Assembly: GCF_004010195.1 (NCBI RefSeq)
Contig: NC_057749.1
Location: 9,435,492-9,499,491, forward strand
DNA length: 64,000 nucleotides
Direction of reading: 5' to 3'
DNA from: Chiloscyllium plagiosum
Lineage: Eukaryota
The notes under the pieces are model-generated. The model did no database searches. It was not told the DNA's origin and saw only the letters and a list, made by a program, of their open reading frames with translations. Made by a program: the position numbers and the translations under genes. Each line of letters opens with the position of its first letter. Positions within the stretch are counted from its first letter, which is position 1. Of the stretch, positions 5,110-63,590 are shown piece by piece.

Positions 5110-5221
5110 GGAGAAAGTGAGAAGATTCCTGAAGAAGGGCTCATGCCCGAAACGTCGATTCTCCTGCTCCTTGGATGCTGCCTGACCTGCTACGCTTTTC
5201 CAGCAACACATTTTCAGCTCA
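5110..5221 (+). mobile_element. PLE-terminus mini-insertion (family A) with 15-bp TSD
   Basis: ccattggttatacag at 5095-5109 and 5222-5236; the internal sequence matches the terminus of the GIY-YIG PLE at 16944-17662. Confidence 0.85.
5123..5162 (+). ncRNA. Minimal type I hammerhead ribozyme motif (family A)
   Basis: agattc CTGAAGA a gggc-tcat-gccc GAAA CG TC gattct: core boxes intact, helix II paired, palindromic ACGT helix III, helix I with one U-U mismatch. Confidence 0.75.
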
Positions 5222-5555
5222 CCATTGGTTATACAGCCAGTCCCAGCACCCCATCCAATCCCTGTATTTTCCATGGCTAACCACCTCGCCTACACATTCT
5301 TAGACACTATGGGCAATTTAGCATGGCCAATCCACCTAACCTGCACATCCTGTGGGAGGAAACCCAAGCAGTTACAGGGAGAATGTGCAAACTCCACACA
5401 GACAGTCACCCGAGGGTAGAATTGAATCTAGAATTGAACCCGGGTCTCAAGTGCTGTTAGTGCTAACCACTGAGCCACCGTGTCATCCCTCAACAGTTTA
5501 CAACCATTGCAGGAATCTTTAAGTTCATCACTGATGTAATGTAGAAACTGAAGGT

Positions 5556-5785
5556 CTTGTGATGCATTGGGTAATGTCCTTGTCTCTAAGCCAGAATCCC
5601 TGGATTCAAGTCCCATTCCAGAAGCATGCATACATGTCGTGACCAAACAGATTGATTAGCATCCTGCAACTCTTTCTGCAATGCTTTTGTCAGGCGGGTA
5701 TTTTCTAATAGACTTGTTCAGAGATGTGATTGCACACTACTGGAGCAGGTAGGATTAGAACCTGGATCTCCTGGTTCAGAGTTAG
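5556..5785. mobile_element. Two opposed copies of a short tRNA-headed SINE (family C)
   Basis: The pattern ggtaatgtcc...gccagaa...ggattcaagtccca...aacagattgatta recurs at about 32790-32880, 50825-50935, 50960-51025 and 60520-60620. Confidence 0.55.
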
Positions 5786-5789
5786 GCTG

Positions 5790-6400
5790 CTTTGGCAGCG
5801 GTTGAAGGCCAGGTGGGTCTGGACTCAGGATACCAATGGCCTCCGGGTTTCCTTGAGGCTTCTGCAGTGTCTTTGCGGTGGCATGGTTGGTCTGGCCTGG
5901 CCTGGGACTCCTTTCAGCCGCTTTGGTGGCTGTTTTTGTAAGCGTCAGTCTGGGTCTCCTGTGGCAGCTTCAGTCAGTCTGTGACACCATGTGGCGTTTT
6001 CTTCAGCACTACGTTGGGACCAGCCTCGGATTCCAACTGGGATCGGGTCCCTGAACCCAGAGTCATGAAATGGACTAAATAGATTTTGTCTTAAATTCTC
6101 TTTTTTTTTTGAAATTTTTGTTTCTTTATTACATTACCGTGGAGGATTCTGATTCTGAATTTGTTATTTCTTTATTTTTCTAATATATTACTGTGATTTT
6201 GTATTTTTGAAGGTCTGTAATGCTGGACTTTTATTTCTTTACTTTTTTGATATTTTTTCCCTGGAAATTTGTACTCAATATCTGTACCTAGATACCTTGG
6301 AACATAAGATGGCGCTATAAATGGCAACATGTAAACTTTTCACTGTACTCATGGGAATACATGTGACAATAAATTGGAATTCCAATTCCAATTCCAATTC
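5790..6400 (+). mobile_element. Unclassified retro-repeat with a LINE-like 3' tail and (attcca)n end
   Basis: Tail cttttcactgtact...catgtgacaataaa plus a short tandem repeat; related copy on the minus strand at about 34230-34380 and a tail at about 53470-53550. Confidence 0.5.
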
Positions 6401-7098
6401 AGTTAATTCCTGGAGAGTCTAGAAACATGTAGTAACTGCAATGCAACAGCCTCTCTACACTTTTGCAAATAAATATTAGAAATGCACTGAGGGCCACAGT
6501 TAAAAAAAATCAAAAGATAAATGGAAACTTATCAAAATTAAATCAAAGCATTAATTCCAGGAGTGAAGATGTGCCCCCAGCCCCTGCAATAATGTATTGG
6601 GATTTTTTTTTATCCTGAAAGGGTAGCCTCAGTTCTTTGTCTGAAAGGTTGGCATTGCCAACAGCAAAGTGATCTTCCATAGCATGAACACAATTATTGT
6701 GTGGGATTTGAACATACAGACTTCTGACTTTGAGATACGAGCCACTGAACTACTGCTTAAAAACAAGAGGTGCATCTTCAACTTTGGTCATTCCAGGATG
6801 GAAACTGCAATAGAGAGCAGCCAAATGCTGAATGCCAGTTAGTGCAGGACAGGTGTTCTGCAGGCAGGGACCTGTTTGGCAGGTGTGCTAACATTCTTTT
6901 CCGTTTAAGTATGTACTGTATAGAATCATTAAACTTGCAGACTGAAGCCAAGGAAGAATAGTAATCATGAATTTGGATATAGACAAAATAAATGTAATGC
7001 TTTCAAGTTAAATTATTCCAGATATAAACAGGCAGAGGTAGTATTGACATGTTTGAAAATGGGAAATACTCCAAATGTTCTCTTTTTGCATGTATGAT

Positions 7099-7424
7099 TT
7101 GGAGGTGCCAGTGTTGGACTGGGGTGGACAAAGTTAAAAATCACACAACACCAGGTTATAGCCCCACAGGTTTATTTCAAAGTAATAGCTTTCAGAGCGC
7201 TGCTGCTTCATCAGGGGCAGGACCATAAGACACAGAATTTATAGCAAAAGATTGCAATATATATTGAACAGTTGTTTTAATTGCATGACACTGTAATCTT
7301 TTGTTACAAATTCTGTGGCTTATGGTCCTGTCCCACTTGTTACCTGTTGAAAGAGCAGTGCTCTGAAAGCTAGTGCTTCCAAACAAATCAGTTGGACTAT
7401 AACCTGGTGTTGTGTGACTTTTAA
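7099..7424. mobile_element. Palindromic PLE-terminus insertion (family B) with about 15-bp TSD
   Basis: ttttgcatgtatgat at 7084-7098 and 7425-7439; long inverted arms; same terminus as the PLE at 49108-49790. Confidence 0.85.
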
Positions 7425-7899
7425 TTTTGCATGTATGATGGCAGCCACGTGCACTGCAAATTGCTTCAATTGAGAGCTCAACTGGTAATATACTGGAATA
7501 GCACATGATCAGAGGACATATCTTGACAAGCACAATTCTTTCCACATTTAATTGTCACACATAAACTAAAATAAATCTAACATATAAATCTAATGTAACA
7601 CTTTCGATTGGGTCGCTGGCTGAAATCAAGAGAAATCCTCAGTTATAATTTTAACCCATCATGTCGACCAGGTACATGAATCACTCACTGCTGTAGCATG
7701 GATCAAATAATGTAGCAATGGCCAAGAGATTGATGGTCACTTCAGTGTCTGAAACAAAATCAACATTTTTGTTGGATTGGTCAGCATCATCGAAGTTCAA
7801 GGCTAACAAATAATTCAGGTGACCTCTTCACATTTTCCATTATATCAGTGTCCTTACTTGATTTAAGTTTCATATAGGTTTTGGGGATTACTTGTGACT

Positions 7900-9925: not shown

Positions 9926-10147
9926 TTAAAAATCACACAACACCAGGTTATAGTCCAACAGGTTTAATTGGAAGCACACTAGCTGTCAGAGTGCCGCTCC
10001 TTCATCTGGTGACAGTGATCACCTGATGAAGGTGTGGCACTCCGAAAGCTAGTGTGCTTCCAATTAAACCTGTTGGACTATAACCTGGTGTTATGTGATT
10101 TTTAACTTTGTACACCCCAATCAAACACCGGCATCTCCACATCATAA
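9926..10147. mobile_element. Palindromic PLE-terminus insertion (family B) with 13-bp TSD (one mismatch)
   Basis: ctatacctcatca 9913-9925 versus ctatatctcatca 10148-10160; arms ttaaaaatcac...ggtga / tcacc...gtgatttttaa. Confidence 0.85.
10019..10055 (+). ncRNA. Minimal type I hammerhead ribozyme motif (family B)
   Basis: cac CTGATGA a ggtgt-ggc-actcc GAAA GC TA gtg: helix I cac/gtg, palindromic AGCT helix III, one mismatch in helix II. Confidence 0.7.
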
Positions 10148-12384: not shown

Positions 12385-12545
12385 CACAAAAACGGAAATG
12401 GCTGGAGAAACTCAGCAGGTCTGGCAGCATCTGTGCAGAGAAAGCAGAGTCAACATTCGGAGTCGAGCGACCCTTCCTCAGAACGCAGCTAGGCTGCAGT
12501 TTCTGATTTTGTTTCAGGTTTCTAGTATCCAGAGTTGTTTAGTTT
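12385..12545 (-). mobile_element. PLE terminal fragment (family C), hammerhead decayed
   Basis: Minus strand reads gttCTGAGGAagggtcgctcgactccgaatgttgact; the GAAA box is mutated. Confidence 0.65.
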
Positions 12546-14974: not shown

Positions 14975-15490
14975 TTCTGGCAGCATCTGTGGAGAGAGAA
15001 ACAGAATTATTGTTTCAAGTCCAATATGACTTCTTCTGAAGAAGGGTCACTGGACTGGATAGGACGGACAGCAATGGTCTTGTTCCTAGGGTGGGGGAGT
15101 CCAAAACTAGAGGGCATACGTTTAAGGTGAGAGGGGAAAGACTTAGAAGGGCCCAGAGGGGCAACTTTTTCTGGATCAGGTGCAGGTATGGAACAAGCTA
15201 GCAGAGGAAGTAGTGCAACTGGGTACCATAACAGCATTTAAAAGGTATCTGGATGGATACATGAACAGGAAAGGTTTCAAGGGATGTGGGTGAAATGCTG
15301 GCAAATGGATCCAGATCAGGTGGGATGTCTGGTTCTGACAAGTAAGATGGAAGGGTCCATTTCCATGTGATATGATTCTGACTCCAAATGTTAACTCTGT
15401 TTCTATCTTCACCATCACTGCCAGACCTGCTGAGTTTCTCCAGCATTCTCTGTATTTGTTTGGGACTTCCAGCGTCTGCAATATTTTGTC
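14975..15490. mobile_element. PLE-terminus inverted element (family C) split by a CR1 3' fragment (about 15057-15380, +)
   Basis: ctgaagaagggtcactggact [CR1 tail] gactccaaatgttaactctg: the two halves rejoin into the family C hammerhead region. Confidence 0.65.
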
Positions 15491-15569
15491 TTTATCAACC
15501 TGCTCTTCTAGCTGAGCAAGCCAGCGATCTTATGGCTATGCCTTTGAGCGTTAAGAAATGTATTTTAAA

Positions 15570-15798
15570 AACCCAGAAAGAACTGTAGATGCTGTCAATC
15601 AAAAACAACAACAAAAAAACCCAAAAATTGCTGGAAAAGCTCAGCAGGTCTTGCAGCATCTGTGGAGAGAAAACAGAGTTAATGTTTCGGGTCGATTGAC
15701 CCTTCCTCAGAACTGGTCACTGAACCAGAAACGTTAACGCTGATTTCTCTCCATGTGCTGCTAGACTTTGCTGAGCTTTCGTGGCAATTTCGGTTTTT
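15570..15798. mobile_element. Palindromic PLE-terminus insertion (family C)
   Basis: Inverted arms (ttgctggaaaagctcagcagg.../...gctgagctttcgtggcaa); gttaagaaat repeated at 15550-15559 and 15799-15808. Confidence 0.75.
15677..15714 (-). ncRNA. Minimal type I hammerhead motif (family C), one CpG-decay change in helix III
   Basis: Minus strand: agtt CTGAGGA a gggtc-aatc-gaccc GAAA CA TT aact; perfect 4-bp helix I and 5-bp helix II. Confidence 0.65.
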
Positions 15799-16690: not shown

Positions 16691-16692
16691 TG

Positions 16693-16810
16693 TGCAGGCA
16701 CCCTGCCTCTATTCCTGATGAAGGGCTTTTGCCCGAAACGTCGATTTTCCTGCTCCTCGGATGCTACCTGACCTGCTGTGCTTTTCCAGCACCACTCTAA
16801 TCTAGACTCT
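16693..16810 (+). mobile_element. PLE terminal fragment (family A)
   Basis: caggcaccctgcctctattcctgatgaagggcttttgcccgaaacgtcg...ttttccagcaccac is nearly identical to the right arm at 34910-34989. Confidence 0.85.
16711..16746 (+). ncRNA. Minimal type I hammerhead ribozyme motif, intact core (family A)
   Basis: attc CTGATGA a gggc-tttt-gccc GAAA CG TC gatt, with the canonical GUC cleavage triplet. Confidence 0.78.
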
Positions 16811-16943: not shown

Positions 16944-17662
16944 GGAGGAAGTGAGGAATGCAGATGCTGGAAAAAGCACAGCTGGTCAGGCAACATCCGA
17001 GGAGCAGCAGAGTCGTAGTTTCAAGCATAAGCTCTTCATCACAAATGTGGGAGTAAGGCCAAAGAGGGCTAAGAGATAAATGGGAGGGGTCTAGGGCTGA
17101 GGGATGGTAGCTGGGAATGTGATAGGTAGATAGAAGTAGGGGTGATGGTGATAGGTCGGAGGATGGAGTGGATAGGTGGGGAGGAAGATGGACAGGTAGG
17201 ACAGTTCCAGAGGATGGTTTGGAGTTGGAGGATTGGATCTGCGATAAGGTGGGGGGAGAGAAGATGAGGAAACTGGTGAAAACAATATTGATCCCATGTG
17301 GTTGGAGGGCCCCAAGGCCAAAGATGAAATGTTTTTCCTCCAGGCATCAGGTGGCTAGAATCTGGTGGTGGAGGAGGCCCAGGACTTGCCTGTCCTTGGC
17401 AGAGTGGGAGGGGGAGTTGAAGTGTTTGGCCACTGGATGGTGGGGTTGTTTATTGTATGTCCTCCGAGACGTTCTCTGAAACATTCCATAAGTCTTCCTG
17501 ATGTACAGGAGGCCACATCAAGAGCAACTGACACAGGAGATGAGGTGTTTGGAGGTGCAGGAAAATCTCTGCCGGATGTGGAAGGATCCTTTGGGGCCTT
17601 GACAGAGGTGAGGGGGGAAGTGTGGGTGCAGGTTTTACACCTCTTATGGTGGCAGGGGAAGG
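16944..17662 (-). mobile_element. Penelope-like element 3' part with degenerate GIY-YIG endonuclease
   Basis: Minus strand encodes FPCHHKRCKTCTHTSPLTSV, HLISCVSCS*CGLLYIRKT (GIY-YIG-like), HFNSPSHSAKD.QVLGLLH and GALQPHGINI, followed by the family A terminus. Confidence 0.88.
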
Positions 17663-17979
17663 AACACAAGCAGGACTTGTGATCGTGACACAGATGCTGT
17701 CCCTCAACAACCATGCATCATAATTCTGGGAAAGGAGGAGATTCACAGAGGCTTGTGACACTGATATGCTCTGGGCTTTGCTAGCACTCAGACCATGGTT
17801 CTGTTCCTAAGACAAACTTGGAGGGGAGATCCTGAAGGTTGGCTTTTGAGACTGATTAAGGGCATCAGTTCTGTGATGGCACCTTCCAAACCACCTGGAA
17901 GCTCAGGGATATTAGAGAATTGGAAAATTCTTGTTTGAATGTTCCTCTTCAGCCACCCATCAACCTATATGGAATTATA

Positions 17980-20180: not shown

Positions 20181-20339
20181 GATATCTTTGCATTGTTCCT
20201 TGTGCTTGTTTATTATGTTAAACTGGTAGACATATTCATATTGTTGTCTTTCTTTATCTCTCAAAGACGCATCACTTTGTTTGAGAAAACTATTAGGAAT
20301 TACGTTTTCTGATGCATTCTAAAAATTCATTGCATAAAA

Positions 20340-20667
20340 GGGCAGCACGGTGGCACAGTGGTTAGCACTGCTGCCTCACAGCGCCAGAGACCCGGGTTCA
20401 ATTCCCGCCTCAGGCGACCGACTGTGTGGAGTTTGCACATTCTCCCCGTGTCTGCGTGGGTTTCCTCCGGGTGCTCCGGTTTCCTCCCACACTCCAAAAA
20501 TGTGCAGGTTAGGTGAATTGGCCACGCTAAATTGCCTGTAGTGTTAGGTGCAGGGGTAAATGTAGGGGAATGGGTCTGGGTGGGTGCGCTTCGGCGGGTC
20601 GGTGTGGACTTGTTGGGCCGAAGGGCCTGTTTCCACACTGTAAGTAATCTAATCTAATCTAATCTAA
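20340..20667 (+). mobile_element. HE1 V-SINE, full-length, young subfamily
   Basis: Intact A/B boxes, V-domain, many retained CpGs, (aatct)4 tail. Confidence 0.93.
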
Positions 20668-21609
20668 AAATATGTAGAATGTTTGCCTGACCTTTTCCTT
20701 TTTTGCTTCTTTTGAAATATTATTCTAGCTATTGGTTTTTAGATCCAATAGGAGGAGTTTATCACAAATTTGTTTAATCACCATCCCTAATTTTATGTGC
20801 TTCTTGCAGATCGCCAACAAATTTTACTAGTTAGGGCAAGAAGATCCTCCACAGATTCACTCTTTTTTTTCTCGTAACTGAAGCCTCTTATACCTGGTAG
20901 CGTTCTCTCACCTTTTGATGATTTCATAGAAGTAAGGCATCTAAAACAGTACTGTAAGTGAACCATTAATTTATTTTGGTTTACTCTTGTGTTTCTGTTT
21001 TTGGATGCATTATAAAACCTAGGATTGCATTTTTTTTCACTTAATCAACGTGTTTGCTCATTTATAAAGTTTGTGCCACAATTTCTCTGCTTTCCTGCTT
21101 CCTTGCTGCTCAGCATTAAACTTCATTTAACTTCTCTCTGTCTAATCCTCTACATCTTAATATTGCTTTAGAAAGCCAGTTGTGAAGAGCAGAACGAAAG
21201 CCAATCCTAACATTCTCTTAAATTTATTTACGGAGTTGCACATTGTAAGTGTGTACATCCTAACTCAATAACCACATGTTTAGTCTGTTTATCTGTTTAG
21301 GAGCTCAAGTTATTCCCCAGTTAATATCCCATCTGCATAAAATTAAACACTCATAACATTGTGTAGTGCACAGCAGTCAGTTTGACTTAACATTAAGCTC
21401 ACCAGCTGACACCTGACAAGATCCCAATCTTTCCCCAAGAACTGAATATTTCACCTTCATAATTTCTATTTATTCAGAATGAAATTTAATAACCTGATAA
21501 AAATCAGTGGGTATGCAGTGTAAAGATTTGTTTCCATGGTTTGCGAAAGGAATAAACCCTGTATGTAACACTAATACAGCACTTGGGCATTTTTCAGTAT
21601 CATGTTTAT

Positions 21610-23025
21610 CATCACTGTTTAAGAAAGGTAACTATAGACCGGTGAGCCTAATGTTGGTGGTGAGGAAGTTGTTGGAGGGAATCCTGAGGGACAGGATTTA
21701 CACGTATTTGGAAAGGAAAAGACTGATTCGGGATAGTCAACATGGCTTTGCGCGTGGGAAATCATGTCCCACGAACTTGATTGAGTTTTTTGAAGAAGTA
21801 ACAAAGTGGATTGATGAGGGCAGAGTAATAGATATGATCTATATGGACTTCAGTAGGGCTTTCGTCAAGGTTCCCCATGGGAGATTGGTTAGCAAGGTTA
21901 GATCTAATGGAATACAGGGAGAACTAGCCATTTGGATATAGAACTGACTCAAAGGTAGAAGACAGAGGGTGGTGGTGGAGGGTTGTTTTTCAGACTGGAG
22001 GCCTGTGACCAGTGGAGTGGCGCAAGGATCGGTGCTGGGTCCTCTACTTTTCATCATTTATATAAATGATTTGGATGTAAACATAGGAGGTATAGTTGGT
22101 AAATTTGCAGATGACACCAAATTTGGAGGTGTAGTGGACAGCAAAGAAGGTTACCTCAGATTACAACGGGATCTTGATTAGATGGGCCAAAGGGCTGAGA
22201 AGTGGCAGATGGAGTTTAATTTTGATAAATGCGAGGTGCTGCATTTTGGAAATGCAAATCTTAGCAGGACTTATACACTTAATGGTAAGGTCTTAGGGAG
22301 TGTTGCCGAACAAAGAGACCTTGGAGTGCAGGTTCATAGCTCCTTGAAGGTAGAGTCACCGGTAGATAGGATAGTGAAGAAAGCTTTTGGTATGCGCTCC
22401 TTTATTGGTCAGAGTATTGAGTACAGGGGTTGGGAGGTCATGTTGCGGCTGTATAGGACATTGGTTAGGCCACTGTTGGAATATTGCATGCAATTCTGGT
22501 CTCCTTCCTTTAGGAAGGATGTTGTAAAACTTGAAAGGGTTCAGAAAAGATTTACAAGGATGTTGCCAGGGTTGGAGGATTTGAGCTATAGGGAGAGGCT
22601 GAATAGGCTGGGGCTGTTTTCCCTGGAGCGTTGGAGGCTGAGGGGTGACCTTATAGAGGTTTATAAAATCATGAAGGGCGTGGATAGAATAAATAGACAA
22701 AGTCTTTTCCCTGCAGTAGGGAGTCCAGAACTAGAGGGCATAGGTTTAGGGTGAGAGGGGAAAGATATAAAAGGGACCTAAGGGCAACTTTTTCACACAG
22801 AGGGTGGTGTGTGCATGGAATGAGCTGCCAGAGGAAGTGATGGAGGCTGGTACAATTACAACATTTAAAAGGCATCTAGATGGTTATATGAATAGAAAGG
22901 GTTTAGAGGGATATGGGCCAAGTGCTGGCAGGTGGGACTAGATTGGGTTGGGATAACTGGTCGGCATGGACGGGTTGGACCAAAGGGTCTGTTTCCAAGC
23001 TGTACATCTCTATGACTCCATGACT
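21610..23025 (+). mobile_element. CR1/HER1 LINE, 5'-truncated, near-intact RT domain and 3' UTR
   Basis: ORFs 21507-21941, 21969-22181 and 22182-22754 share one frame separated by point stops: [47 protein letters not shown]. Confidence 0.95.
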
Positions 23026-33960: not shown

Positions 33961-34765
33961 AAGAATTGATTAGGTTAGTTTTGAGATTGTGGCTGGGTAT
34001 TGCCATGTTGAAATGATAAAGTCTGGAATTTGGAAGGAATTGAATGATGGATTCTCAGTTTTGAAATGTTGGCAAAGAATTAAACTAGGCAGGAGATTCT
34101 TCAATAAATCACAGTAAGGATACAAAACAGAAGGATATGAACAATAAGGCAGTTGGAGTTTAGGAATATTCTGAGGTGTGGTTGTCGTATGGATAAAATA
34201 TAGAGCAAAAATAGTTGATGATGGATTTAGATTTTATTGTCACATGTACTCAAGTACAGGGATACAGGAATACAATTAAGTGTACAATATCGCCATTTGT
34301 GGCACCATCTTAGGTACAAAGGTACCTAGGTACAAAATCTTAGGTAGAAAAATGAAGAAATAAGTTAGAAAATTCAACACTAGAGTTCGAGGATGGTTAT
34401 TAAAAGGTTTCTTTACGTTTCTTAATATATTGACTGTAAAAGAATATGAAGACTTATAGTTATTTGGCACCATTTACCATCTCAGGACATCCCAAAGTGC
34501 TCTATAGTCAATTAGATACTTTATTAAGGTATAGTCACTGTTGTAATGCAGCTATTAAAGTAACTATTATTGAGACCAGCTATTTATTCCACACTCATTT
34601 TACTGATAGAATCTTTATTCCCAGGCTGCTTTGGTAGATTTGAACTCATTTGGCTGAATCATCCTCTCTCTTTCTCATCTTAATTCACACCCTTTTCACA
34701 TTTTGTTACCTTTTTCCACTATTAAAAACCCCTTGGCTTTGGCACTAGGCCTCTACACCATCTGG

Positions 34766-34991
34766 GTAAAAACAATGACTGCAATTGCTGGAAATCAGTG
34801 TGGTGCTGGAAAAGCACAGCAATTCAGGCAGCATCCGAGGTGCAGGAGAATCGACGTTTCGGCAAAAGCCCTTTATCAGGAATACAGGCAGAGTGCCTGA
34901 AGGGTGCCTTTCAGGCACTCTGCCTGTATTCCTGATGAAGAGCTTTTGCCCGAAACGTTGATTTTCCTGCACCTCGGATGCTGCCTGAACT
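34766..34991. mobile_element. Palindromic PLE-terminus insertion (family A) with 16-bp TSD
   Basis: cctctacaccatctgg at 34750-34765 and 34992-35007; arms about 34823-34901 and 34910-34989. Confidence 0.9.
34928..34963 (+). ncRNA. Minimal type I hammerhead motif (family A)
   Basis: attc CTGATGA a gagc-tttt-gccc GAAA CG TT gatt; one helix II mismatch. Confidence 0.62.
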
Positions 34992-36394
34992 CCTCTACAC
35001 CATCTGGCCAATTGTTCCTCCTTTGCCTTTGTCAAAAGTATAAAAAGGAACCTATTTTGCAACACCTGACAGTTCTGAAATAAGTCACACCAAACCTCTA
35101 ATGTTAATTCTGTTTCACTCTCACAGATGCAGCCAGAGTTTCTCCAGCACTGTGTTTATTTCAGATTTCCAGCATCCTTTATTGTTTTTATTGCCTGAAT
35201 CATTATTAACATTGCCTCTGTGTTATTCATCCAGCAATGTTGCTACTGTGCTACTTTACCACAGCCTTCCCTGCTCCTGGGATCAAATTCTTCCAAGATA
35301 TTCCCAAGGACTGTAAAATTCCCTTTCAAGTGTCCTCAGACTTTCTACATCTCCTCCACCGAGCGGATGCCTTTGGGAGAACCCATATCATTGCCACCAC
35401 TCCCAGGGACATGACACAACTCTAACAATGCCCATAGATGTGAGCACAGCTTGTTTCTGCTGCTGTTACATTATCGCAGAGACTTTAATTTTGTAAGCTG
35501 ATCATCGTGCAGAAAAATGTTGCTTTTGACAGAATATCTCCAGCCTACTGTTTCATACACAGATGAGTTTTCCAGTGTAATACAATTTAAAAATATTAAT
35601 CTAAAAATAGAAAAGATCTAAAATACATTTTTCCAACTACCTTGACATTGTGGCAACAAGAGCTGATGGAGCAATGGAGTATTTATAGCATAATCTTACG
35701 CACATAGTTTAAATGCTATTGTATACAGGAGCCAGAGGAAGTCTTATCCCAATGTCCTGCTTAATTAATAAGATATCCTTGGCCATAGCTTTAATGCAAT
35801 TATTCAAAGGATGGTTTGAAGAGATAAGCAAAGCTATGGATATTGATGTCTTGGAGAAGAAATAGCTTTCCTTAACAATGCAGCAACAAGGACTTGCTGT
35901 GGAGGCTGTAAGAATTGTGCATGAGGATATTTAGCTTTCTTTGCTGACATAGTAAAGTAATTAGTTAGTACATTAACTTGCTCCAAGGTCAATAATAATA
36001 ATAATGAAAGAACTGGACTCTTCCACACTGGACTGTTTTGAAGTCTGCATTGCACAGGCTTTGACCTTTCTAACCTAAGATGATAAATTGAGATCCTGTA
36101 AATGTCACAGAATCCTGTTCCATGTTAATGGGACCAATCTAGCCGCTTTCAAAGTGGAATTGATCCCAACTGGAGGCTCCCACCACCCATTTTGTGTGGC
36201 TGCTCTCTGTCCTTGACACATCGCTGTGGATAACCAATGAAAATCAGCACTTGCTCAATTGCTCCTAGCCTTTCCTAATATCCCACCTCCTAACAGACAT
36301 TTGAAGGCATAAATGCTGAATGAAATTGACTGTTGAAGCCAACCCTGAACTCCCAATTCACAAAGACCTTCAGAGCTTATTAAATATGCAACAG

Positions 36395-39820: not shown

Positions 39821-40213
39821 AATAGCCACTAATACATTAATTTTCTAATAATCTCCCCCCAGTCCCCCCAGTTTGGGGGATGAATCCACCACCTCTTGTC
39901 TGCAAGGGTCTGGAATGTACTGAGTCATGAGGATGGGTCACTGGTTACCCCCCACCCCAAAGGTTAACTCTGATTTCTCTCCACAGATGCTGCCAGACCT
40001 GCTGAGCTTTTCCAGCGATTTCTGTTTTTGTTTCTGAAATGTACTGCCCTTGAGTGTGCCATATTCAACCTCTGCACGCCTATACATACATACACACTGC
40101 AGAAAATATAATGTACACGGTTAGGGGGAGAAGACTGGGGAAGGATGTTATTATCGATGTTATTATCCAGGGAAGAGTTACAGAGTCATACAGCAAGGAA
40201 ACAAATCCTTCAG

Positions 40214-40438
40214 GAGAAAGTGAGGACTGCAGATGCTGGAAATCAGAGCTGAAAATGTGTTGCTGGAAAAGCGCAGCGGGTCAGGCAGCATCCAAGGAAC
40301 AGGAGAATTGACATTTTGGGCATAAGCCCTTCTTCAGGAACGATTCCTGAAGAAGGGTTTATGCCCGAAACGTCGATTCTCCTATTCCTTGGATGCTGCC
40401 TGACCTGCTGCGCTTTTCCAGCAACACATTTTCAGCTC
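40214..40438. mobile_element. Palindromic PLE-terminus insertion (family A) with 15-bp TSD inside a CR1 tail
   Basis: aaacaaatccttcag at 40199-40213 and 40439-40453; 95-bp arms 40246-40340 and 40344-40438 with a 3-nt spacer. Confidence 0.92.
40342..40380 (+). ncRNA. Minimal type I hammerhead motif, intact core (family A)
   Basis: gattc CTGAAGA a gggt-ttat-gccc GAAA CG TC gattc. Confidence 0.75.
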
Positions 40439-40502
40439 AAACAAATCCTTCAGTCCAACTCCTCCATGCTGAACAAGTTCCCCAAACTAAATTAGTCCTA
40501 TT

Positions 40503-43460: not shown

Positions 43461-43919
43461 AACAGACTTCATTCTTACTGTTGAAATTCTTGAAACAATT
43501 ACAAATTGAAACTAAAGATTGCATCAAATACTCAGACATTCAGGCAGTATCTGTAGAGAAACCAAGTTAACATCAGTTAACAGATTATGCTTGGCCTGTT
43601 GGGCTTTTCCAACTTTTTTTGTTTTATTTCAGATTTCCAGAATCCACAGGATTTTGTTTTCTGAATAGTCCTTAAGACAATTACCCATTGTTTAATGAGG
43701 TGTTTTACTGATATTTTATTTCATATGCTCTGAGAAGCTAATTTTATATTTGTGTAATACCAAATTTCTTCAAAGTGATAATTCCTTTTTTTCTGAAATG
43801 CATTTGTTGGAAAAGTTTGTATTTTAGTTTAGCTTCTATCTAATCCAAATGTTACCCAAGTGTTTGCTATCTGCAAATTTAAATTAATAGTTAAGGATAT
43901 TAAACAGTGTCCCCTCGGT

Positions 43920-44221
43920 GGGCGGCATGGTGGCTCAGTGGTTAGCACTGCTGCCTCACAGCACCAGGGTCCCAGGTTCGATTTCAACCTCAGGCAACTG
44001 TCTGTGTGGAGTTTACGTGGGTTTCCTCTGGGTGCTCTGGTTTCCTCCCACAATCCAAAAGATATGCAGGTCGGGTGAATTGGCCATGCTAAATTGCTCA
44101 TAGTGTTGAGTGCATTAGTCAAAGGGAAATGGGTCTGGGTGGGTTACTGTTTGGAGGGTTGGTGTGGACTGGTTGGGTCGAAGGGCCTGTGTCCACGCTG
44201 TAGGGAATCTAATCTAATCTA
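43920..44221 (+). mobile_element. HE1 V-SINE (internal deletion)
   Basis: Head, partial V-domain, (aatct)3 tail. Confidence 0.88.
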
Positions 44222-48530: not shown

Positions 48531-49107
48531 AAGGGCAGGGGTGTGGTACTGGTTGGATTGCTCTTCCAGCAAGGCACAGCAGACACCTTAGGCCAAATGG
48601 TCTCCTTCAGCTGTCCAATGTCAGCTGTCTCTCGATTTGAGGTTGATGTCCGCTCGGAATCATGGGTTTCTTTGTGTGACTGAGCAAGCCAATCCTGTAC
48701 TCACAGAAGATAGTATGTGAAGCGCTGGATTTAAAAAAACAAATTCACTTCCTCTAAATATTCTGTGATTCCAGTGAATGCTTCCTGCATGTCAAAGGTG
48801 GTGGTTCCATTGATTGATGGTCTCGGATTAATGTTTAATCAAAAGGGAAACTCCAACGGTATTTTCAGAAACTCTTATCTGATTCCAGGCATCAGCCATA
48901 TTTCCCTAATGATGAAAAGGAGAAATGGTAAAAATAATGAAAAAATCCAGGGGAAGATGGAAAAACAATTTCTTGCTGGTGGATGCCAACAACTATTATG
49001 TAATTGATGTTCATGGGGGAGGGGCAAGGGTAGAAAATGTTTAAGGATTTGGTGGTGTAGCAGTGATATCACTGAACTAATAATACGAGGCTGAAGCTAA
49101 TACTGTG

Positions 49108-49790
49108 TTGTGGAGGTGCCAGTGTTAGACTAGGGTGGGCAAAGTCAGAAGTCACATGACACCAGGTTATAGTCCAACAGGTTTATTTGAAGTCACAAGC
49201 TTTTGGAGCGCTGCTCCTTCATCAGATGAAGTGGAGGGAAGCGCACAAGTGCAGAATATTTATGAAGGGATTATGGTCAGATAATTCCAGATCATTAAGA
49301 GATTTGAGAGATAAGTAGAAATGGTGTGAGTGGAGAGTCGACAGGCTGAATAACCAGTCTTTGCAGGTGATCAAAAGTGTCAGACAGTGTGAGTAAAGTG
49401 TCAACAGTTGAATAACAAGTGAACCATCATCTATGAATTGATTAATTAAGACAGAAGATAACTACAAAAGGTCAAAAATAAGATGGCACGAGAGACAAAC
49501 CAAATGGCTGGAATAACATGATAGGTGTCAATGTCCCATGATGAGGGTCTAACCCAAGTAATCCAAACTAATTAAGGTAGAGAGATGATAACAAGTTATC
49601 AAGGTGATGGTGTGACAACAGAATAGTAAGGAAGATTTTCCAAACACAAAACAGTATGATGGGGTTACATGTAGCGTGGCATGAACCCAACATCATGGTT
49701 GAGGCCATCCTCATGGGTATGGAACTTGGCAATCAGTTTCTGTTTGGCGATTCTGCATTGTATGTCTCGAAAGCTGTCTTGCTGTGAGAG
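49108..49790 (-). mobile_element. Penelope-like element 3' end (family B): GIY-YIG C-terminus, 3' UTR and terminus
   Basis: Minus strand RIAKQKLIAKFHTHEDGLNHDVGFMPRYM* (stop at 49665-49667); the terminus has CTGATGAaggagcagcgctccAAAAgctt (hammerhead with G12A). Confidence 0.85.
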
Positions 49791-51109
49791 GCATGGGCCA
49801 CCACAACAGCTGATAAAATGTGAGTTCAGCTAATCAAATATAAAGGTAATCTCAGCAATGGTGATCATGAAACTATCATTGATTATTGTAAAAAACCATC
49901 AGATTTACTCATGCTCTTTAGGGAAGAAAGCCTACTGCCCTAGCCTACATCTGACTCCATTCCCACAGCAATGTAGTTGACTCTTCAAATCGCACTGAAT
50001 TGGCCTTGCAAACCACTCACTGTCAGAGACACCTGTATCTCTGAGCAACAATGGTAGAAGCCTTATAACCAAGGAGACCATGGGAGAATAAACAGATGGA
50101 GTTGATTCTGGAAATAATGAATAAAGCTAACTCTCAATTCAAACTGAAGATCTAAACTTCTCACAGAGAAGAAAGCTTTCTTCCCATCACCATCCAGGTC
50201 AAATCCTAACTCTTAAACCTTAACCCTGTTCATATCTCGTCTTCTGAACTAAAATGACACATTGAAGCCATTGGAAAGTTTCCTACCAATTGCTCCACAT
50301 TCCTAAAGCTTGATTCAAATCATTGTCACATTGGTGAGACCACAAAAGTCCTTCACTTCGGGTCATCCTAAGCATGTAAGTGGTGCTATGTAAATGCCGG
50401 TCTTTACCTCTCTAGCCCAGTACGTCGATAACGTCTCCTTTGTCCCCTGAGATGGGGAATCAGGTGGAGACAGTGATCCATGTACATTGTAGCTGTGTGT
50501 AGCCACAATTTGTTGACATCCCTTCGCAATATATCCTTAATGGGTCATAAGCATCCATAATCCTGGAGAAGCTAGTTAAATACAAGCTAATATATCTGCT
50601 ATGAGTATTGTAACATAATCCCTGATATGTCTGCAGGTTATACTTCAGCATGAAAGGCTTCAATGGAACAGCTATTTATCTCTGTTCAGCTGGAGATGCT
50701 GCCTCTAGGATTGAAACATACAATGGATAGTTGTTAGTGAGTTATGAATCAAAAAAGATTTTTAAGTAAATTATCGATAAACTGTTGATTACTCTTATCA
50801 TCCTAGAGTGTTATTCAGGTGGGGGTCATAATAATATGGTAGTAATGTCCCTATCTCTGAGCTAAGAAGCCTGGGTTCAAGTCCTACTTGCTTCAGAGCT
50901 GTGCAATAACTTCTCTAAACAGGTTGATTATAAATATCTAAAAGGCCAATACGGAAAGAACTCTTGTGGTGGTGTGGTAGTGTCCGTACCTTGGAGCCAG
51001 AAGGCCTGGATTCAAGTCTCACCTAAGGCTGTAAATACGAGCAGATTTAGGCGATTCAGCCCATTGAGTTTGCTCCACCATTCGGTCATGGCTGATAGAG
51101 GTGTGTAAC

Positions 51110-51375
51110 AAAAGCAAAAATAGCTGAAGAAACTCAGCCGGTCTGGCAGCACCCGTGTGGACAAAGCAGAGTTAGCGTTGCCATATCAGTAACCCTTCTT
51201 CAGAACTGATAGCAGCCAGGAAACATTTGTATGTATGCGGAAGTGGGGGAGGTGAAGTGGGGAAAAGAGTGAGCAGATAGGTGGACATGAAGCCCAGAGA
51301 GAGAGAACAGTGCGACAAACAAGGGATGACTGATAGTAAACCAGGAACAGAGAAATGCTGATAATGGGGACCTTT
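51110..51375 (-). mobile_element. PLE 3' UTR and terminus (family C)
   Basis: Minus strand cagttCTGAAGAagggttac...aacgctaactctg preceded by a pyrimidine-rich UTR. Confidence 0.6.
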
Positions 51376-55440: not shown

Positions 55441-56199
55441 CCTGTCGAGAGTGTGGTTCTGGAAACGCACAGCAGGTCAGGCAGGATCCAAGGAGCACGA
55501 GAGTCAGTGTTTCAGGCAAAAGGTCAAGAACGAGGGACTTCATAGGAATAGCTAAAGAAGCAATGGTAACATGAAAAATAATTTTTATATCGAATCTGAT
55601 ACCAATCAGGATTCAATCATGACTTTAAAAAGGAAATTGGATAAAGGGAATTGGATAACCAGTTGAAGAAGGAGAATCTGTGGGACTGCAAGGAAAGTCT
55701 GAGGATTGAACACAACTGATGCAGAGAGCTTGCATTGACAAGATGGACTGAATGGTCTCCTTTTATACTGTAACATTCTATTATTAATGATTCACTCTTA
55801 CCCACTTCGAGAAACCCTCCCTTTTCTCCACCACCTGGTCAAATTTATTTTTGTTCAGTCCCTTTTAGTAACATTTGCATTTTGACAGCAATTGTTATGT
55901 TAATGAAACCCTCATAGATGCACACATGGCTGGTTGTGGCTGTGGGCAGGTAGAGCTGAGATGTTACATGAATGATGAAGTAGGTTGAGGTGAGACTGCT
56001 GAATGTTATATAAATCCTGAATTAGTTTAAACCCAATCTGAAAAAAGTTGGTCTGAACAGTGTCAGATGTCACATGACACAGGTTATAGTCCAGCAAGTT
56101 TATTAGAAATCAGAAGCTTTTGAACCACTGCTTCCTCATCACCTGAATAGTGTGACACTTGAAGTTAAAGCTTGGATTAATTTATAACTATGATGTTGT

Positions 56200-60622: not shown

Positions 60623-60745
60623 GAAACAGAAAAGAACCATAGATGCTGGAAGAAGGGTCACTGAACATGAAACGTTAACTCTGATTTCTCTCCACAGATG
60701 CTGCCAGACCTGCTGTGTTTTTCCAGCAATTTCTGTTTTTGTTCA
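60623..60745 (+). mobile_element. PLE-terminus mini-insertion (family C) with 8-bp TSD
   Basis: tgattagt at 60615-60622 and 60746-60753; gaagaagggtcactgaacatGAAACGTTaact. Confidence 0.65.
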
Positions 60746-60767: not shown

Positions 60768-61414
60768 TGTGACAATACTAAGCCTTTAAAAGGTGTATTT
60801 GTTCCTTTTTTTTTTGAAGAGAGGTTTTCAGTAAGCGATACCGAGCTGTCTATTACAAGCCCATAAAGTAAACCGCTTGAGAGACCTTGGCTTTTTAAAA
60901 AATGTTGGAACAATAGAAGCAGACTGAATGGGTGGGGCAAACTCCTCCCGAACCAGGGTTTTTAGTTTTTCATTTTTCAGGAGCAAATGCTCGGTTTTTA
61001 AACTTGTTTTGGAAGCTGCAGTACATCTCTTTCTGGTATTGTCTCCAAGTTTTGATGTTTTTTCCTCTTGGACTGGAGAAATACCTGTGAGACAATCTAT
61101 TTTACTGAACTTGCCTTTTTCCCAGGGTGTGTTGTTGGGATGTTACTGTATTAGAACAGTTAATTAGTAGTCATGAATATATCTAATTATTTTGTTAAGA
61201 ATTTTGATAGAGTTACAGTTAAGCTAGTTCTTTTTATTTTATCTGTTTTTAACGGCAGTGTAAAAATGAAGTGTGTTTTGCTGAAGTTTGAGTAGGTTGA
61301 CCAATCGAATACATTTGGAACACAACACCTTACACTTACCTTTAAATAAGAAAAGGTTAGGGTCTCGACTATCTCCTAAATATATTTTTAGGGGGTTTGG
61401 TCGGAGACTTAACA
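60768..61414 (+). mobile_element. Solo LTR (Gypsy/ERV-like)
   Basis: Begins TGTGAC, ends TAACA; flanks gttt/attt (3 of 4 match); no internal ORF. Confidence 0.55.
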
Positions 61415-61418
61415 ATTT

Positions 61419-61629
61419 CAGAAGTCAGACAACACCAGGTTATAATCCAACAGGTTTATTTGAAATCACAAGCTTTCATAGCGCTGCTCCTTTGTTAGGT
61501 GAAGTCTGATGAAGGGGCAATGCTCCGAAAGCTTGTGATTTCAAATAAACTTGTTGAACTATAATCAGGCTTCATCTGACTTCTGACCTTGTCCACCCTG
61601 GTCAAATACCGGCACCTCCACATCATGCA
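61419..61629. mobile_element. Palindromic PLE-terminus insertion (family B) with 9-bp TSD
   Basis: taacaattt at 61410-61418 and 61630-61638; arms cagaagtcaga...aagctttc / gaaagctt...tctgacttctg; + strand core CTGATGA a ggggc-aat-gctcc GAAA GCTT at 61506-61534. Confidence 0.85.
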
Positions 61630-62869
61630 TAACAATTTGTTTTGTTGACTTCCAAAGAGTACAAAGGGGGATGGGTTTGCTCTGAGCAGAGCTGACTTAT
61701 TTTCTGCTATTAACCCCGACTATTAACACTAACTCTACATCTGTATCTCTCTGTTACACCCACAAGCACACCATTTGCCTCTTACACTAGGCATACTTAC
61801 CATCTGCTCTATTTTCTCCTTCTTCCCATTTACAATAAGAAACAGCACTTTCCAGCCCTCTTCAATTCCAAAGATGAGTCCTCCCAGACAAGAAATGTTA
61901 ACTCTTTGCACAGACATTGCCAGAAGTGCTGAGCTATTCCAGCACTGTTTTTAAAAGAAGACATTTATATGGGCTGTCAAAAAAATACAAACAGGGTCTA
62001 GTGGGAGACAATGGTATGTTTAATGGCTGAGTTTACAAAATGTAAAAAGGGTTTTCTGAGACAGTAGGTTCTTGGTAGGTATGAGGCAGATACATGTTAC
62101 ATTGCATTCTGGGAATAAACCTATCAAGAGAAGGATCTCAGTCTACTTTCATACTTTACTGTCTGGCTCAGATCCATTAAACAAGTTTGACACTGGAGCA
62201 GAACCTTTCTCTTTAAGTTGCACCAGGCATTCTTCAGCATCTGCCTGAACCCGTCAACACAACTTGGGTCCAGTGGCTTATCATTAATCTCTAAGTCCCA
62301 CATTCGCATGCCCAGTTTAGTCTCTGAGTTTAATTCTGTCACATTGAGAGTCAGAGGGCAACTTGAGTTATAGCTGAGTACCACTGACTATATATAGAAA
62401 TCAGTGCCTGTTGGTTTTTTTTGTGCGCGTTGATTACAGATTTAAAAAAAGCCATCTTTAGCCATGCATTTAAAGGAAGTTTCAATGATGATTTGGGCTT
62501 TGCATGTGCTTGTTGTGCTTATCAGTTTAAATTCCTGTAGCAACTGATGGAGGATAACAGTACAGTTGACACGCCAAGAGATTGTCTCTCTGGGACTGTA
62601 GACACCCTCCATTTACCAGCACTTTTCTTCAATGCCCTACTGAAGATGTAGCGTTATCCCAACGGGATTCCGTAGCAGGAGTGCCCTATGTGCATTTCTC
62701 CTCAGGCAATCTAACCCTTGATATATATTTAGCTTGAAATGAATATGATGAAGAATTTGTGTGTGTTCCTTCACTGCCGGCCACAAAGACAAACACCATT
62801 GACAATAAGTCAAAATGCACTAAAAGTTGGGGTACCAACTCTTCCTGATCCTATGCGCAAGCTGTGTTT

Positions 62870-63190
62870 TAAGTGGTTAGCACTGCTGCCTCACAGCGCC
62901 AGGGACCTGGTTTTGATTCCAGCCTTGGGCGATTGTCTGTTTGGAGTTTGTATATTCTTCCCATGTCTGCATAGGTTTCTTTTGGGTGCTCTTGTTTATT
63001 CCCACAGTCCAAGGATGTGCAGGTTAGGTGGATTGGTCATACTAAATTGTCCATAGTGTCCAGGGATGTGCAGGCTAGGTTGTTTAACTGTGGTAAATGT
63101 GGGGTAATGGTGATAGGGTGGGATGCTCTATGGAGGGTTGATGCAGACTTAATGGGTCAAGTGGCCTCTCTCTGAACTGTACAGATTCTT
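62870..63190 (+). mobile_element. HE1-like SINE (older)
   Basis: agtggttagcactgctgcctcacagcgccagg head, V-domain, tail. Confidence 0.8.
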
Positions 63191-63496
63191 AGAAATTCTA
63201 CATTTTCAAGTTGTAAACACGGCTTTCAGTCAGGTGACAAACAACCTAAACCAATCTATTTATGGCATGCCAGATTAAATCAACGATGTTGACCCGGTTA
63301 GTGTAAGGCAGTCAGTAAAATTCCATGTTCTGTCATAATGTTTGAGAATGCTGATCTTAGAATATTAATGAGACAATGGACCTAGGTCATAAAAGAACAA
63401 GTCAGACCAGATCCTTTTGCCTTTCCAGTGAGCATGTGAGAAAACATGTGTACAAGGATTGAGTAAGAAAGTATAATGGTACAAACATTAAATGAG

Positions 63497-63590
63497 CTTA
63501 AAAATGTGTTGCTGGAAAAGCGCAGCAGGTCAGGCAGCATCAAAGGAGCAGGAGAATCAACATTTCGGGCATAAGCCCTTCTTCAGGAAT
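63497..63590 (-). mobile_element. PLE-terminus mini-insertion (family A) with 11-bp TSD and hammerhead motif
   Basis: cattaaatgag at 63486-63496 and 63591-63601; minus strand attc CTGAAGA a gggc-ttat-gccc GAAA TG TT gattct. Confidence 0.85.

Follow-up and report, generated by a model that had tools for sequence, protein, structure and literature searches.

Cervera & de la Peña (2014; PMC4209133) described minimal hammerhead ribozymes (min-HHRs) in metazoan Penelope-like elements (PLEs) as type I motifs with CUGANGA and GAAA boxes, a G10.1-C11.1 closing pair, a loopless helix III with palindromic positions 15.2-16.2 and a short helix I. They form several consensus families per genome with compensatory changes between them, and occur mostly singly or as close opposite-strand pairs, few of them in full PLEs. 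In vitro, min-HHR monomers gave no cleavage and dimers low cleavage (PMC4209133). The hammerhead of an Anolis PLE is reported to have cleaved only when the element's own protein was added, and reads ending at the cleavage site were not found (PMC11167929).

The motifs in the window, by which we mean the whole 64,000-nt stretch of Chiloscyllium plagiosum DNA analysed here, match the min-HHRs of PMC4209133 in layout, family structure and dispersal, a known arrangement. Very probably, they are min-HHRs in the pseudo-LTRs (pLTRs) of at least three canonical, endonuclease-bearing PLE lineages, and the copies in the window are integration debris.

Nine sites had been named in a sequence-only reading, and we confirm that observation as real: each lies where it was placed and has both core boxes (5129+, 7190-7214-, 10023+, 15685-15710-, 16715+, 34932+, 40347+, 61506+ and 63563-63586-), in a common layout where CTGANGA and a single extra base precede the helix II hairpin, which is followed by GAAA, NN and TH. 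By itself the bare box pattern is weakly above chance, with 10 matches in the window compared to 3.67 ± 2.28 in shuffles and at least 10 in 2 of 100 shuffles; the tenth match, at 50144, falls outside the nine sites and is a chance one. Decisive for the reality of the motif was the full descriptor (G10.1-C11.1, four or more paired positions in helix II, complementarity between 15.2 and 16.2, U16.1 and any base but G at 17), which is passed by 5129, 16715, 40347 and 61506; when a single mismatch is tolerated in helix II, 10023 and 34932 pass as well, making six matches, compared to none in 300 dinucleotide shuffles at either setting. Because four of the nine named sites pass the full descriptor, calling all the cores intact was an overstatement. 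The lesions of the remaining three sites are mostly CpG decay: a G.U closing pair and a C.C mismatch at 7190-, a helix III reading ACAT at 15685-, and a helix III reading ATGT with U at position 17 at 63563-. The consensus helices proposed for families A, B and C are correct; the perfect GGAGC/GCTCC helix is found in none of the three named family B sites of the window. An Rfam search of the window returned no hammerhead match, even at E <= 10, and its RRE and mir-1993 matches are spurious, their source being the A2 fold-back hairpin at 34750..35007. The assignment to minimal type I hammerheads of the PLE kind is upheld. In the minimum-energy fold of the A1 monomer, helices I and II form and the core is open.

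The earlier figure of about 10 decayed copies was too low: BLAST with four unit types as queries gives 30 unit arms in the window (A 9, B 8, C 13), 21 besides the nine named. The elements are as follows.

5095..5236 (+): family A (A1) solo insertion, unit 5124-5221, with a full min-HHR at 5129-5156 (+) (CTGAAGA-A-GGGC/TCAT/GCCC-GAAA-CG-TC), an inverted 14-nt distal-tail piece at 5110-5123 and a 15-bp target duplication CCATTGGTTATACAG at 5095-5109 and 5222-5236.
7084..7439: family B long-arm fold-back, one insertion, with arms 7093-7215 (-) and 7342-7429 (+) head to head, each reaching ~60 nt upstream of its own HHR, TATAAAT box included; 15-bp target duplication TTTTGCATGTATGAT; HHR 7190-7214 (-) with decayed helix II.
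9926..10146: family B fold-back, arms 9926-10012 (-) and 10015-10146 (+); HHR 10023 (+) with one helix II mismatch, core boxes broken in the (-) arm.
12396..12484 (-): decayed family C unit, HHR region present but broken.
15611..15798: family C fold-back, arms 15611-15722 (-) and 15697-15798 (+); HHR boxes 15685-15710 (-) intact, helix III ACAT through CpG decay.
16691..16807 (+): family A unit of the A2 subtype (loop TTTT), full min-HHR 16715-16742, with at least 20 nt of shared sequence upstream of the core.
16965..17663 (-): PLE 3' end remnant, with an endonuclease coding remnant (Cys-rich linker and GIY-YIG) at 17320-17663, 3'UTR at 17029-17361 and a decayed family A unit at 16965-17041, in which GTGATGA replaces the core box and CTAC stands at helix III.
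34750..35007: family A2 fold-back, arms 34794-34899 (-) and 34912-34994 (+); 16-bp target duplication CCTCTACACCATCTGG; HHR 34932 (+) with one helix II mismatch.
40199..40453: family A1 fold-back, arms 40246-40340 (-) and 40342-40439 (+), the left arm running on into a longer tail form at 40214-40245; 15-bp target duplication AAACAAATCCTTCAG; full min-HHR 40347 (+), in which one pair is G.U.
49106..49233: family B unit or fold-back; in the (-) copy helix II is a perfect GGAGC/GCTCC, and AAAA stands in place of the GAAA box (G12 to A).
51107..51326 (-): decayed family C unit, 5'-truncated, extending ~100-180 nt upstream into PLE 3'UTR.
61412..61630: family B fold-back, arms 61422-61502 (-) and 61506-61626 (+), flanking repeat 9 bp; full min-HHR 61506 (+), in which one pair is G.U.
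63486..63601 (-): family A1 solo, unit 63493-63591 (-), HHR boxes intact; 11-bp target duplication CATTAAATGAG adjoining the unit's 5' edge at -5.
Decayed or 5'-truncated arms: 185-254 (-), 3150-3212 (-), 14976-15016 (-), 15380-15462 (+), 36640-36729 (+), 38337-38443 (-), 39954-40033 (+), 55450-55522 (-), 56070-56120 (-), 60649-60740 (+) and 61903-61950 (+).

The copies are mostly ~100-nt units (HHR plus tail) or head-to-head fold-backs flanked by 9-16-bp target duplications; the rest of the debris is a small number of longer copies lacking their 5' part, together with arms that break off within the unit. Duplications of 15, 16, 15, 11, 15 and 9 bp surround solo units and whole fold-backs; a fold-back is a single insertion event with one 9-16-bp target duplication. 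The BLAST arm map of the window contains no regular head-to-tail unit array. The short copies are dead-on-arrival integration products; the fold-backs would arise by reverse transcription primed on both cut DNA strands.

The derivation from Penelope elements, also proposed by the sequence-only reading, is upheld by a physical tie between each of the three families and PLE coding sequence in this genome. For family C, an endonuclease (EN) frame used as query matched 150 of 150 scored places (among 66,837 first-look candidates), and 25 of the 30 loci fetched have a same-strand C unit downstream of the frame, at a distance of 256-465 nt in 18 of the 25. At locus L048, C units 3.66 kb apart enclose an open frame of 509 aa, which combines a YIDD reverse transcriptase (RT) motif with a Cys-rich linker and a stretch resembling GIY-YIG. 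This frame has 282 relatives, one of which (P0028) scores 29.4 bits for RVT_1 and 25 bits for GIY-YIG, above the 22.6-bit cut-off of the latter; the EN frame of locus L017 is 47% identical to P0028 residues 667-730 (E 1e-18), and the shark EN frames alone gave no match to Pfam GIY-YIG. For family A, the query was the EN remnant of the window at 17320-17663 (-) (98 aa at 46% identity, E 2.6e-18); it too matched 150 of 150 scored places in the genome (among 79,042 candidates). Of the 900-nt stretches fetched downstream of the matches, 18 of 20 contain a same-strand A-type unit, and A1 copies with upstream sequence are collinear with the family A PLE 3'UTR (alignment, E 1e-40). Family A and C units lie ~300 nt downstream of RT/GIY-YIG frames. 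For family B, two HHRs separated by 2,517 nt at locus L071 lie within 229-nt repeats that are 94% identical (pLTRs) and that enclose frames with PADKG and YVDDIF RT motifs; no endonuclease was seen in this, the only full family B copy examined. A full element starts with a TATA-like box, a ~30-40 nt spacer, the HHR and a ~60-100 nt tail or 5'UTR, continues with the ORF (RT, Cys-rich linker, GIY-YIG endonuclease) and ends with a ~300-nt 3'UTR and a repeat of the promoter-HHR-tail block. No open full-length element of the A1 type was found, and therefore this most abundant subfamily may be mobilised in trans.

The very large genomic reservoir that had been predicted is borne out by 105,660 exact matches to three strict family patterns (87,506 for A, 17,799 for B and 355 for C), compared to none for the reversed pattern of any family, and a 20-nt segment taken from the family A tail was counted 165,276 times. 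The short copies thus counted exceed a hundred thousand, and most are dead.

Three families whose helices differ by compensatory changes were likewise recovered by a between-family covariation test on 36 distinct core-intact HHRs. Paired cells amounted to 80.2%, compared to 67.5 ± 1.4 in shuffles (reached in 0 of 500) and 14-42% with slid partners, and double-change cells to 48, compared to 18.9 ± 3.2 (again 0 of 500); the count of pairs with a double change, 8 of 9, was reached in 195 of 500 shuffles and is not significant. Three features are fixed between lineages, namely the core boxes, U16.1 and the additional base that follows A9 (A in 58 of 59), and helices I, II and III vary by compensatory substitutions. 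This covariation suggests selection on the ribozyme fold in replicating master elements. Within families, copies decay about neutrally, fastest at the two CpGs located in C11.1-G12 and in helix III (ACGU). Conservation of the core within a family barely exceeds that of the remaining unit (0.83 vs 0.81 in 25 C copies; 0.91 vs 0.76 in 18 A copies, where the comparison set includes non-unit upstream columns), and therefore the functional case depends on a small number of changes between families whose sequences are related.

In the elements, the hammerhead probably serves in processing or organising PLE RNA; following published work, it would do so as a dimer joined by helix III, a 4-nt palindrome, and/or together with an element protein. 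The genomic copies themselves would be inert. As judged by inspection of the sequence, the sharp 5' edge of A1, 5 nt before CUGA, may mark where transcripts from the pLTR promoter begin. The A2 units, which start 20-33 nt upstream of the core, and the long-arm B fold-back 7093-7429 both begin further upstream, at odds with this promoter/start reading.

The same edge lends some weight to another account, which we regard as a real though minority possibility: the short units would be a SINE-like non-autonomous class rather than random truncations, ~100-nt RNAs starting from the pLTR promoter just 5' of the hammerhead, ending in the tail and copied in full, in trans, by PLE RT, with the hammerhead mainly a protein-binding handle. 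In the window, the four A1 arms all have their 5' ends at -3 to -5 relative to CUGA, where a target duplication or fold-back junction adjoins them. Of 20 distinct HHR-selected A copies, 14 start there too (8 fold-back junctions, 6 solos), the other 6 extending upstream. The window has 22 arms of families A and C, and just 2 of these extend as far as the 3'UTR. A TATA-like box stands at a fixed upstream distance in the three lineages, its first T near -36 (A1), -33 (C) or -40 (B), and therefore transcription is predicted to start at about -3 to -10. The copies far outnumber the open coding copies encountered, and the protein requirement in Anolis (PMC11167929) would suit a binding handle. However, the short units lack the upstream promoter and are therefore unable to found a lineage, so that they would be by-products and not a self-sustaining family. 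The upstream starts of the A2 units and of the B fold-back also speak against this account, and copies of graded length, with 5' ends at about -25 to -285, are what ordinary 5' truncation predicts.

That many genomic copies are active ribozymes cutting host pre-mRNAs, as monomers or trans-dimers, and shaping the transcriptome is very improbable, despite ~10^5 intact-motif copies genome-wide, four window copies that pass the full descriptor and a palindromic helix III offering a dimer route with a predicted cofolding gain of -3 to -9 kcal/mol. Against it stand the inactive monomers and weak dimers in vitro (PMC4209133), the missing cleavage-site reads for the Anolis element (PMC11167929) and the neutral decay of the copies. 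About half of the window arms lie within fold-backs, whose transcripts are predicted to form a near-perfect hairpin of ~95 bp that sequesters the core (-180.8 kcal/mol for the A1 fold-back 40199..40453 as RNA). Forward and reverse genome counts are equal, which is uninformative on orientation relative to genes. Cleavage by genomic copies within host pre-mRNAs, to which the inference of the sequence-only reading pointed, looks unlikely.

That the fold-backs are MITEs, or the motifs chance matches inside an unrelated repeat, is barely credible: ~200-nt palindromes with short flanking target duplications and a bare box pattern marginally above chance would fit, but this is contradicted by the RT/GIY-YIG linkage of families A and C and by the strict descriptor (0 matches in 300 shuffles; reversed patterns 0 genome-wide), the unit also occurs solo and with graded upstream extension into the 3'UTR that follows RT/GIY-YIG frames, and the target duplications vary from 9 to 16 bp, whereas those of DNA transposon families are typically of fixed length.

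The preferred reading, min-HHRs of PLE pLTRs left as integration debris, can be set against the described systems. The host lineage differs from those of PMC4209133, whose main text and two supplements do not name cartilaginous fish; the 105,660 exact matches are at least 10 times its largest counts (~4,000 in coelacanth, ~9,000 in Xenopus), and helix II has 4-5 bp here compared to 7-8 bp in its Schistosoma families. PMC11167929 describes, for the Poseidon-type PLE PAc of Anolis carolinensis, a hammerhead at the pLTR/ORF junction, just before or overlapping the ORF start, as here; cutting and extension of both DNA strands in vitro, which fits the head-to-head fold-backs; and an internal reverse-transcription start, with which the two alternative ends of the units, ~+95 and ~+130, would agree. 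Unlike in PAc, the family B ATG lies ~130 nt past the hammerhead start and not inside the CUGAUGA box, and the evidence there is biochemical, whereas the present elements are known from sequence alone. Animal non-LTR retrozymes (bioRxiv 10.64898/2026.07.22.740005; Cervera & de la Peña 2020, PMC7229834) are also non-coding repeats with type I hammerheads related to PLE pLTRs, reported in one sampled chondrichthyan; theirs are head-to-tail tandem arrays giving circular RNAs, whereas the window units are dispersed solos and inverted pairs outside any regular tandem array. With the insertion architecture of canonical EN+ PLEs in Craig et al. 2021 (PMC8557442), the elements here share heavy 5' truncation, partial tandems producing pLTRs with the HHR inside them, a neighbouring 5'-truncated copy in inverted orientation and a short piece of tail at one end; unlike there, the dominant product here is extremely short, ~100 nt, and the A1 5' end is fixed at the hammerhead edge.

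The sequence-only reading had named nine hammerhead sites in the window, each with both core boxes, and assigned them to three families (A, B and C). A pattern search of the window confirmed all nine: CTGANGA-N(8-20)-GAAA matched at 10 places, nine of which are these sites while the tenth (50144) is a chance match. Taken alone, the bare box pattern was only marginally above chance (10 observed compared to 3.67 ± 2.28 in shuffles, with 2 of 100 shuffles reaching 10). The full descriptor of the minimal type I hammerhead ribozyme motif (min-HHR), defined by one extra base after A9, G10.1-C11.1, at least four paired helix II positions, complementary 15.2/16.2, U16.1 and a non-G at position 17, had four matches, at 5129, 16715, 40347 and 61506. 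Allowing one helix II mismatch added 10023 and 34932, for a total of six. Neither the strict nor the relaxed descriptor matched anything in 300 dinucleotide shuffles, thereby removing doubt over the reality of the motif. The other three named sites keep both boxes but are damaged in helix II or III.

BLAST searches with four unit types, a unit being the hammerhead and its tail, revealed 30 unit copies, or arms, in the window (9 of family A, 8 of B and 13 of C), 8 of which are cut short within the unit and have no hammerhead. One family B copy, at 49106-49229(-), has a perfect helix II and reads AAAA in place of the GAAA box, a natural example of G12 to A, the classical inactivating substitution. 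An Rfam scan of the window gave no match at gathering score, and no hammerhead family was among the 15 matches at E ≤ 10. Rfam hammerhead models may require a closed helix III, in which case the missing match is expected.

To describe the core, we used 154 unit matches reaching the hammerhead region in 285 kb of sequence (the window plus loci fetched from elsewhere in the C. plagiosum genome), 59 of which retained both core boxes at hammerhead spacing. Of these 59 copies, 58 have A as the single unpaired nucleotide separating A9 from G10.1, 57 have U16.1, and none has G at position 17. The 10.1-11.1 pair closing helix II is G-C in 34/45 A, 5/7 B and 2/7 C copies, and mostly G.U in the rest because of CpG decay of C11.1-G12. 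Positions 15.2/16.2 are C-G in 34/45 A copies, G-C in 7/7 B copies and C-G in 1/7 C copies, the other C copies having CA or TG. Helix III has no loop, and its complementary 15.2/16.2 positions make it a 4-nt palindrome.

Consensus helices of the three families (helix II pairs listed inward from 10.1-11.1)
Family A: helix II G-C, G-C (A-U in the older subfamily), G-C, C-G; helix III ACGU; helix I GAUUC/GAUUC
Family B: helix II G-C, G-C, A-U, G-C, C-G; helix III AGCU; helix I CAC/GUG
Family C: helix II G-C, G-C, G-C, U-A, C-G; helix III ACGU; helix I AGUU/AACU

Covariation was assessed on 36 different hammerheads with intact cores, taken from both the window and the fetched loci. Pairs were counted on an anchored layout, as a MAFFT alignment misplaced family B relative to the GAAA box. 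Helix cells were paired in 80.2% of cases, compared to 67.5 ± 1.4 in shuffles (0/500 as high) and 14-42% with slid partners, and 48 cells carried double changes compared to 18.9 ± 3.2 in shuffles (0/500 as high). The number of pairs with any double change (8 of 9) was not significant, 195 of 500 shuffles being as high. Compensatory changes between the consensus families are present, in a comparison of three or four related lineages. The predicted minimum-energy fold of a monomer of A1, a subtype of family A, has helix I and helix II with the core open. Dimer cofolding predicted an intermolecular duplex over the palindromic region and did not yield the textbook dimeric hammerhead; as evidence for a dimeric hammerhead, such modelling is weak.

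The unit shared by family A copies is about 100 nt long: it starts 5 nt ahead of CUGA and extends to about +95, or in some copies to about +130. Most copies have no Penelope-like element (PLE) frame beside them. Two RVT_1 fragments in the window, 4359-4775(-) and 21501-21941(+), were rejected as PLE sequence, as both are of LINE type (YINDLD...FANDTKLGG) and unrelated to the hammerhead units; the unit at 5124 has one of these LINE-type reverse transcriptase (RT) fragments at a distance of 350 nt. Pairs of A motifs on one strand, separated by 0.8-3.8 kb, were likewise rejected as full elements, the intervening RT frames being of LINE type (FADD/FANDT) and not PLE.

The link to PLE coding sequence came through the endonuclease (EN). 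A Pfam GIY-YIG search of the genome gave one weak match, on a 1-kb contig, among the 150 of 14,403 candidates scored; this match and a frame in locus L017 provided an EN-like query. The L017 query matched at all 150 places scored (of 66,837 candidates), and 25 of the 30 loci fetched have a C unit downstream of the EN in the same orientation, the gap being 256-465 nt in 18 of the 25. Locus L048 contains two C units 3.66 kb apart around an open frame of 509 aa that includes a YIDD motif, a Cys-rich linker and a GIY-YIG-like stretch, while locus L049 gave an RVT_1 score of 30.1 bits. The L048 frame has 282 database relatives, the closest named ones being elasmobranch. The shark EN frames alone had no Pfam match. 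One protein relative of the L048 frame, P0028, has RVT_1 plus GIY-YIG at 25 bits, above the GIY-YIG cut-off; the GIY-YIG region of P0028 aligns with the EN frame of L017 (E 1e-18).

For family A, the window itself contains the remnant of an EN at 17320-17663(-), with a 3′UTR and then a decayed family A unit after it. Relatives of this remnant were found at 150 of 150 scored places (of 79,042 candidates), with an A-type unit 3′ of them in 18 of 20 fetched downstream stretches, and A1 copies extended upstream align to the 3′UTR of the remnant. For family B, locus L071 has two hammerheads in 229-nt repeats, 94% identical and 2.5 kb apart, around PLE-type RT frames; an EN was not seen in this copy. 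These elements have the features of canonical EN+ PLEs, namely a coding frame, hammerhead-bearing pseudo-LTRs (pLTRs) flanking the ORF, frequent 5′ truncation and an adjacent inverted truncated copy.

Long runs of N, either assembly gaps or withheld sequence, adjoin PLE or LINE sequence in L015 (4198-5360), L017 (about 2320-5610) and L050 (454 N), and the run in L015 cuts off one inverted pair of units. The 3′ part of the PLE frame of L048 carries an inserted copy of an abundant tRNA-derived SINE family, whose head is GGGCGGCACAGTGGCTCAGTGGTTAGCACTGCTGCC and which has at least 12 copies in the window.

Copies of the tRNA-derived SINE in the window
1901-2120, SINE copy
20339-20557, SINE copy
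29962-30186, SINE copy
32310-32500, SINE copy
43919-44113, SINE copy
62854-63072, SINE copy
24905-25117, inverted SINE copy (example)
31714-31894, inverted SINE copy (example)

The sequence-only reading had also proposed a very large genomic reservoir of hammerhead motifs, and genome-wide counts in the 3.56-Gb assembly bear this out. Exact matches to strict family patterns numbered 87,506 for family A, 17,799 for family B and 355 for family C, and the reversed-pattern controls gave 0 for each family. A 20-nt stretch taken from the family A tail was counted 165,276 times. The genome holds at least 165,000 family A units, and three hammerhead lineages.

Conservation within families was measured on copies picked via the EN and not via the hammerhead. 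Core conservation is 0.83 in family C compared to 0.81 for the rest of the unit, and 0.91 in family A compared to 0.76 for a comparison set that includes non-unit columns. The worst-conserved columns are CpG, at 0.56-0.63. From this pattern it follows that selection worked on master elements and not on inserted copies. Families A and C have two CpGs at critical hammerhead positions, C11.1-G12 and 15.2-16.2. In old copies these have become TG or CA, so that 10.1-11.1 is a G.U pair and helix III reads ACAU or AUGU, as at 15685(-) and 63563(-) in the window and in loci L037, L041 and L058. It is because of this decay that so few family C motifs remain exact.

Single target duplications flank both solo units and whole fold-backs, in which two arms of one family stand inverted, head to head. 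Since one duplication surrounds the whole fold-back, each fold-back is one event.

Target duplications in the window
5095/5222, 15 bp
7084/7425, 15 bp
34750/34992, 16 bp
40199/40439, 15 bp
61410/61630, 9 bp
63486/63591, 11 bp

The window contains six or seven head-to-head pairs, and in all adjacent inverted pairs the tails point outward. Priming on both cut DNA strands would yield such head-to-head fold-backs; the accessible part of one study reports priming of this kind in vitro for an Anolis element (PMC11167929). A fold-back transcript is predicted to form a near-perfect hairpin (−180.8 kcal/mol, z = −27.8), in which the core would be hidden. Sub-threshold Rfam matches to HIV RRE (E 1.5e-08), mir-1993 and mir-680 at 34823-34989 were rejected as artefacts of the fold-back hairpin of A2, the other subtype of family A; they are an annotation trap.

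Four family C arms (14976(-), 15380(+), 15611(-) and 15697(+)) form a nest inside 800 nt, at 14976-15798, a grouping that points to several rounds of PLE insertion, either into an older copy or next to one. Among C arms on one strand, the smallest spacings are 317 and 635 nt, and these arms lie within a nest of inverted pairs; the 30 BLAST arms in the window include no regular same-strand tandem array.

The four A1 arms of the window all stop 3-5 nt upstream of CUGA, and of the 22 A and C arms no more than two extend into the 3′UTR. A TATA-like box is found at a conserved distance in all three lineages, its first T about 33-40 nt before CUGA.

TATA-like boxes
Family C: GCATATAAACC, loci L018-L046
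Family A: CATTTATCTCTCAGCC, loci L051-L070
Family B: GCTATAAATTC, L071 and window 7216-7260(-)

This box is probably the pLTR promoter. We infer that transcripts begin at the edge of the hammerhead, which would account for the constant 5′ end; this simple picture does not suit A2 units or the long-arm family B fold-back. We put forward tentatively, and with more doubt than confidence, that the dominant product of these shark-type PLEs may not be the outcome of random truncation but a full retrocopy of a short RNA, whose transcription the TATA-type promoter of the pLTR would initiate about 5 nt ahead of the hammerhead. In that case the hammerhead would mark precisely the 5′ end of the template and would serve chiefly as a handle gripped by the dimeric RT/EN protein. 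The promoter-less hammerhead-plus-tail units and fold-backs, more than 10^5 in number, would then be a direct genomic record of that RNA and of two-strand priming.

On sequence grounds, we assign the motifs to the min-HHRs of PLEs, a known kind, and the finding leaves known hammerhead biology unchanged. It provides a clean, well-populated vertebrate example, material for covariation-based minimal-hammerhead models, and material for studies of PLE integration in its fold-backs, tails and fixed 5′ edge. In annotation, the units should be masked as PLE fragments and not taken for ribozyme genes, microRNA precursors or RRE-like structures. Full-text searches, and searches inside the 2014 min-HHR paper (PMC4209133) with the covered part of its supplements, gave no description of shark min-HHR families. 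Earlier work reports PLEs in the whale shark and in vertebrates at large (PMC8455134 and PMC4350176, accessible parts), and PLE-related retrozymes in one chondrichthyan, according to the accessible part of a 2026 preprint (bioRxiv 10.64898/2026.07.22.740005). A non-LTR retrozyme is a head-to-tail tandem array of hammerhead monomers, whereas the window arms show no such array. Unlike the Rfam hammerhead families, the window motifs lack a covariance-model match, current Rfam models missing them. In contrast, the min-HHRs of metazoan PLEs (PMC4209133) share with the shark motifs the extra nucleotide, G10.1-C11.1, palindromic 15.2-16.2, a short helix I and covarying families, and likewise occur mostly as dispersed copies or opposite-strand pairs. 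The insertion architecture of the shark units is also the same as that of canonical EN+ PLEs, as far as the accessible part of PMC8557442 describes it.
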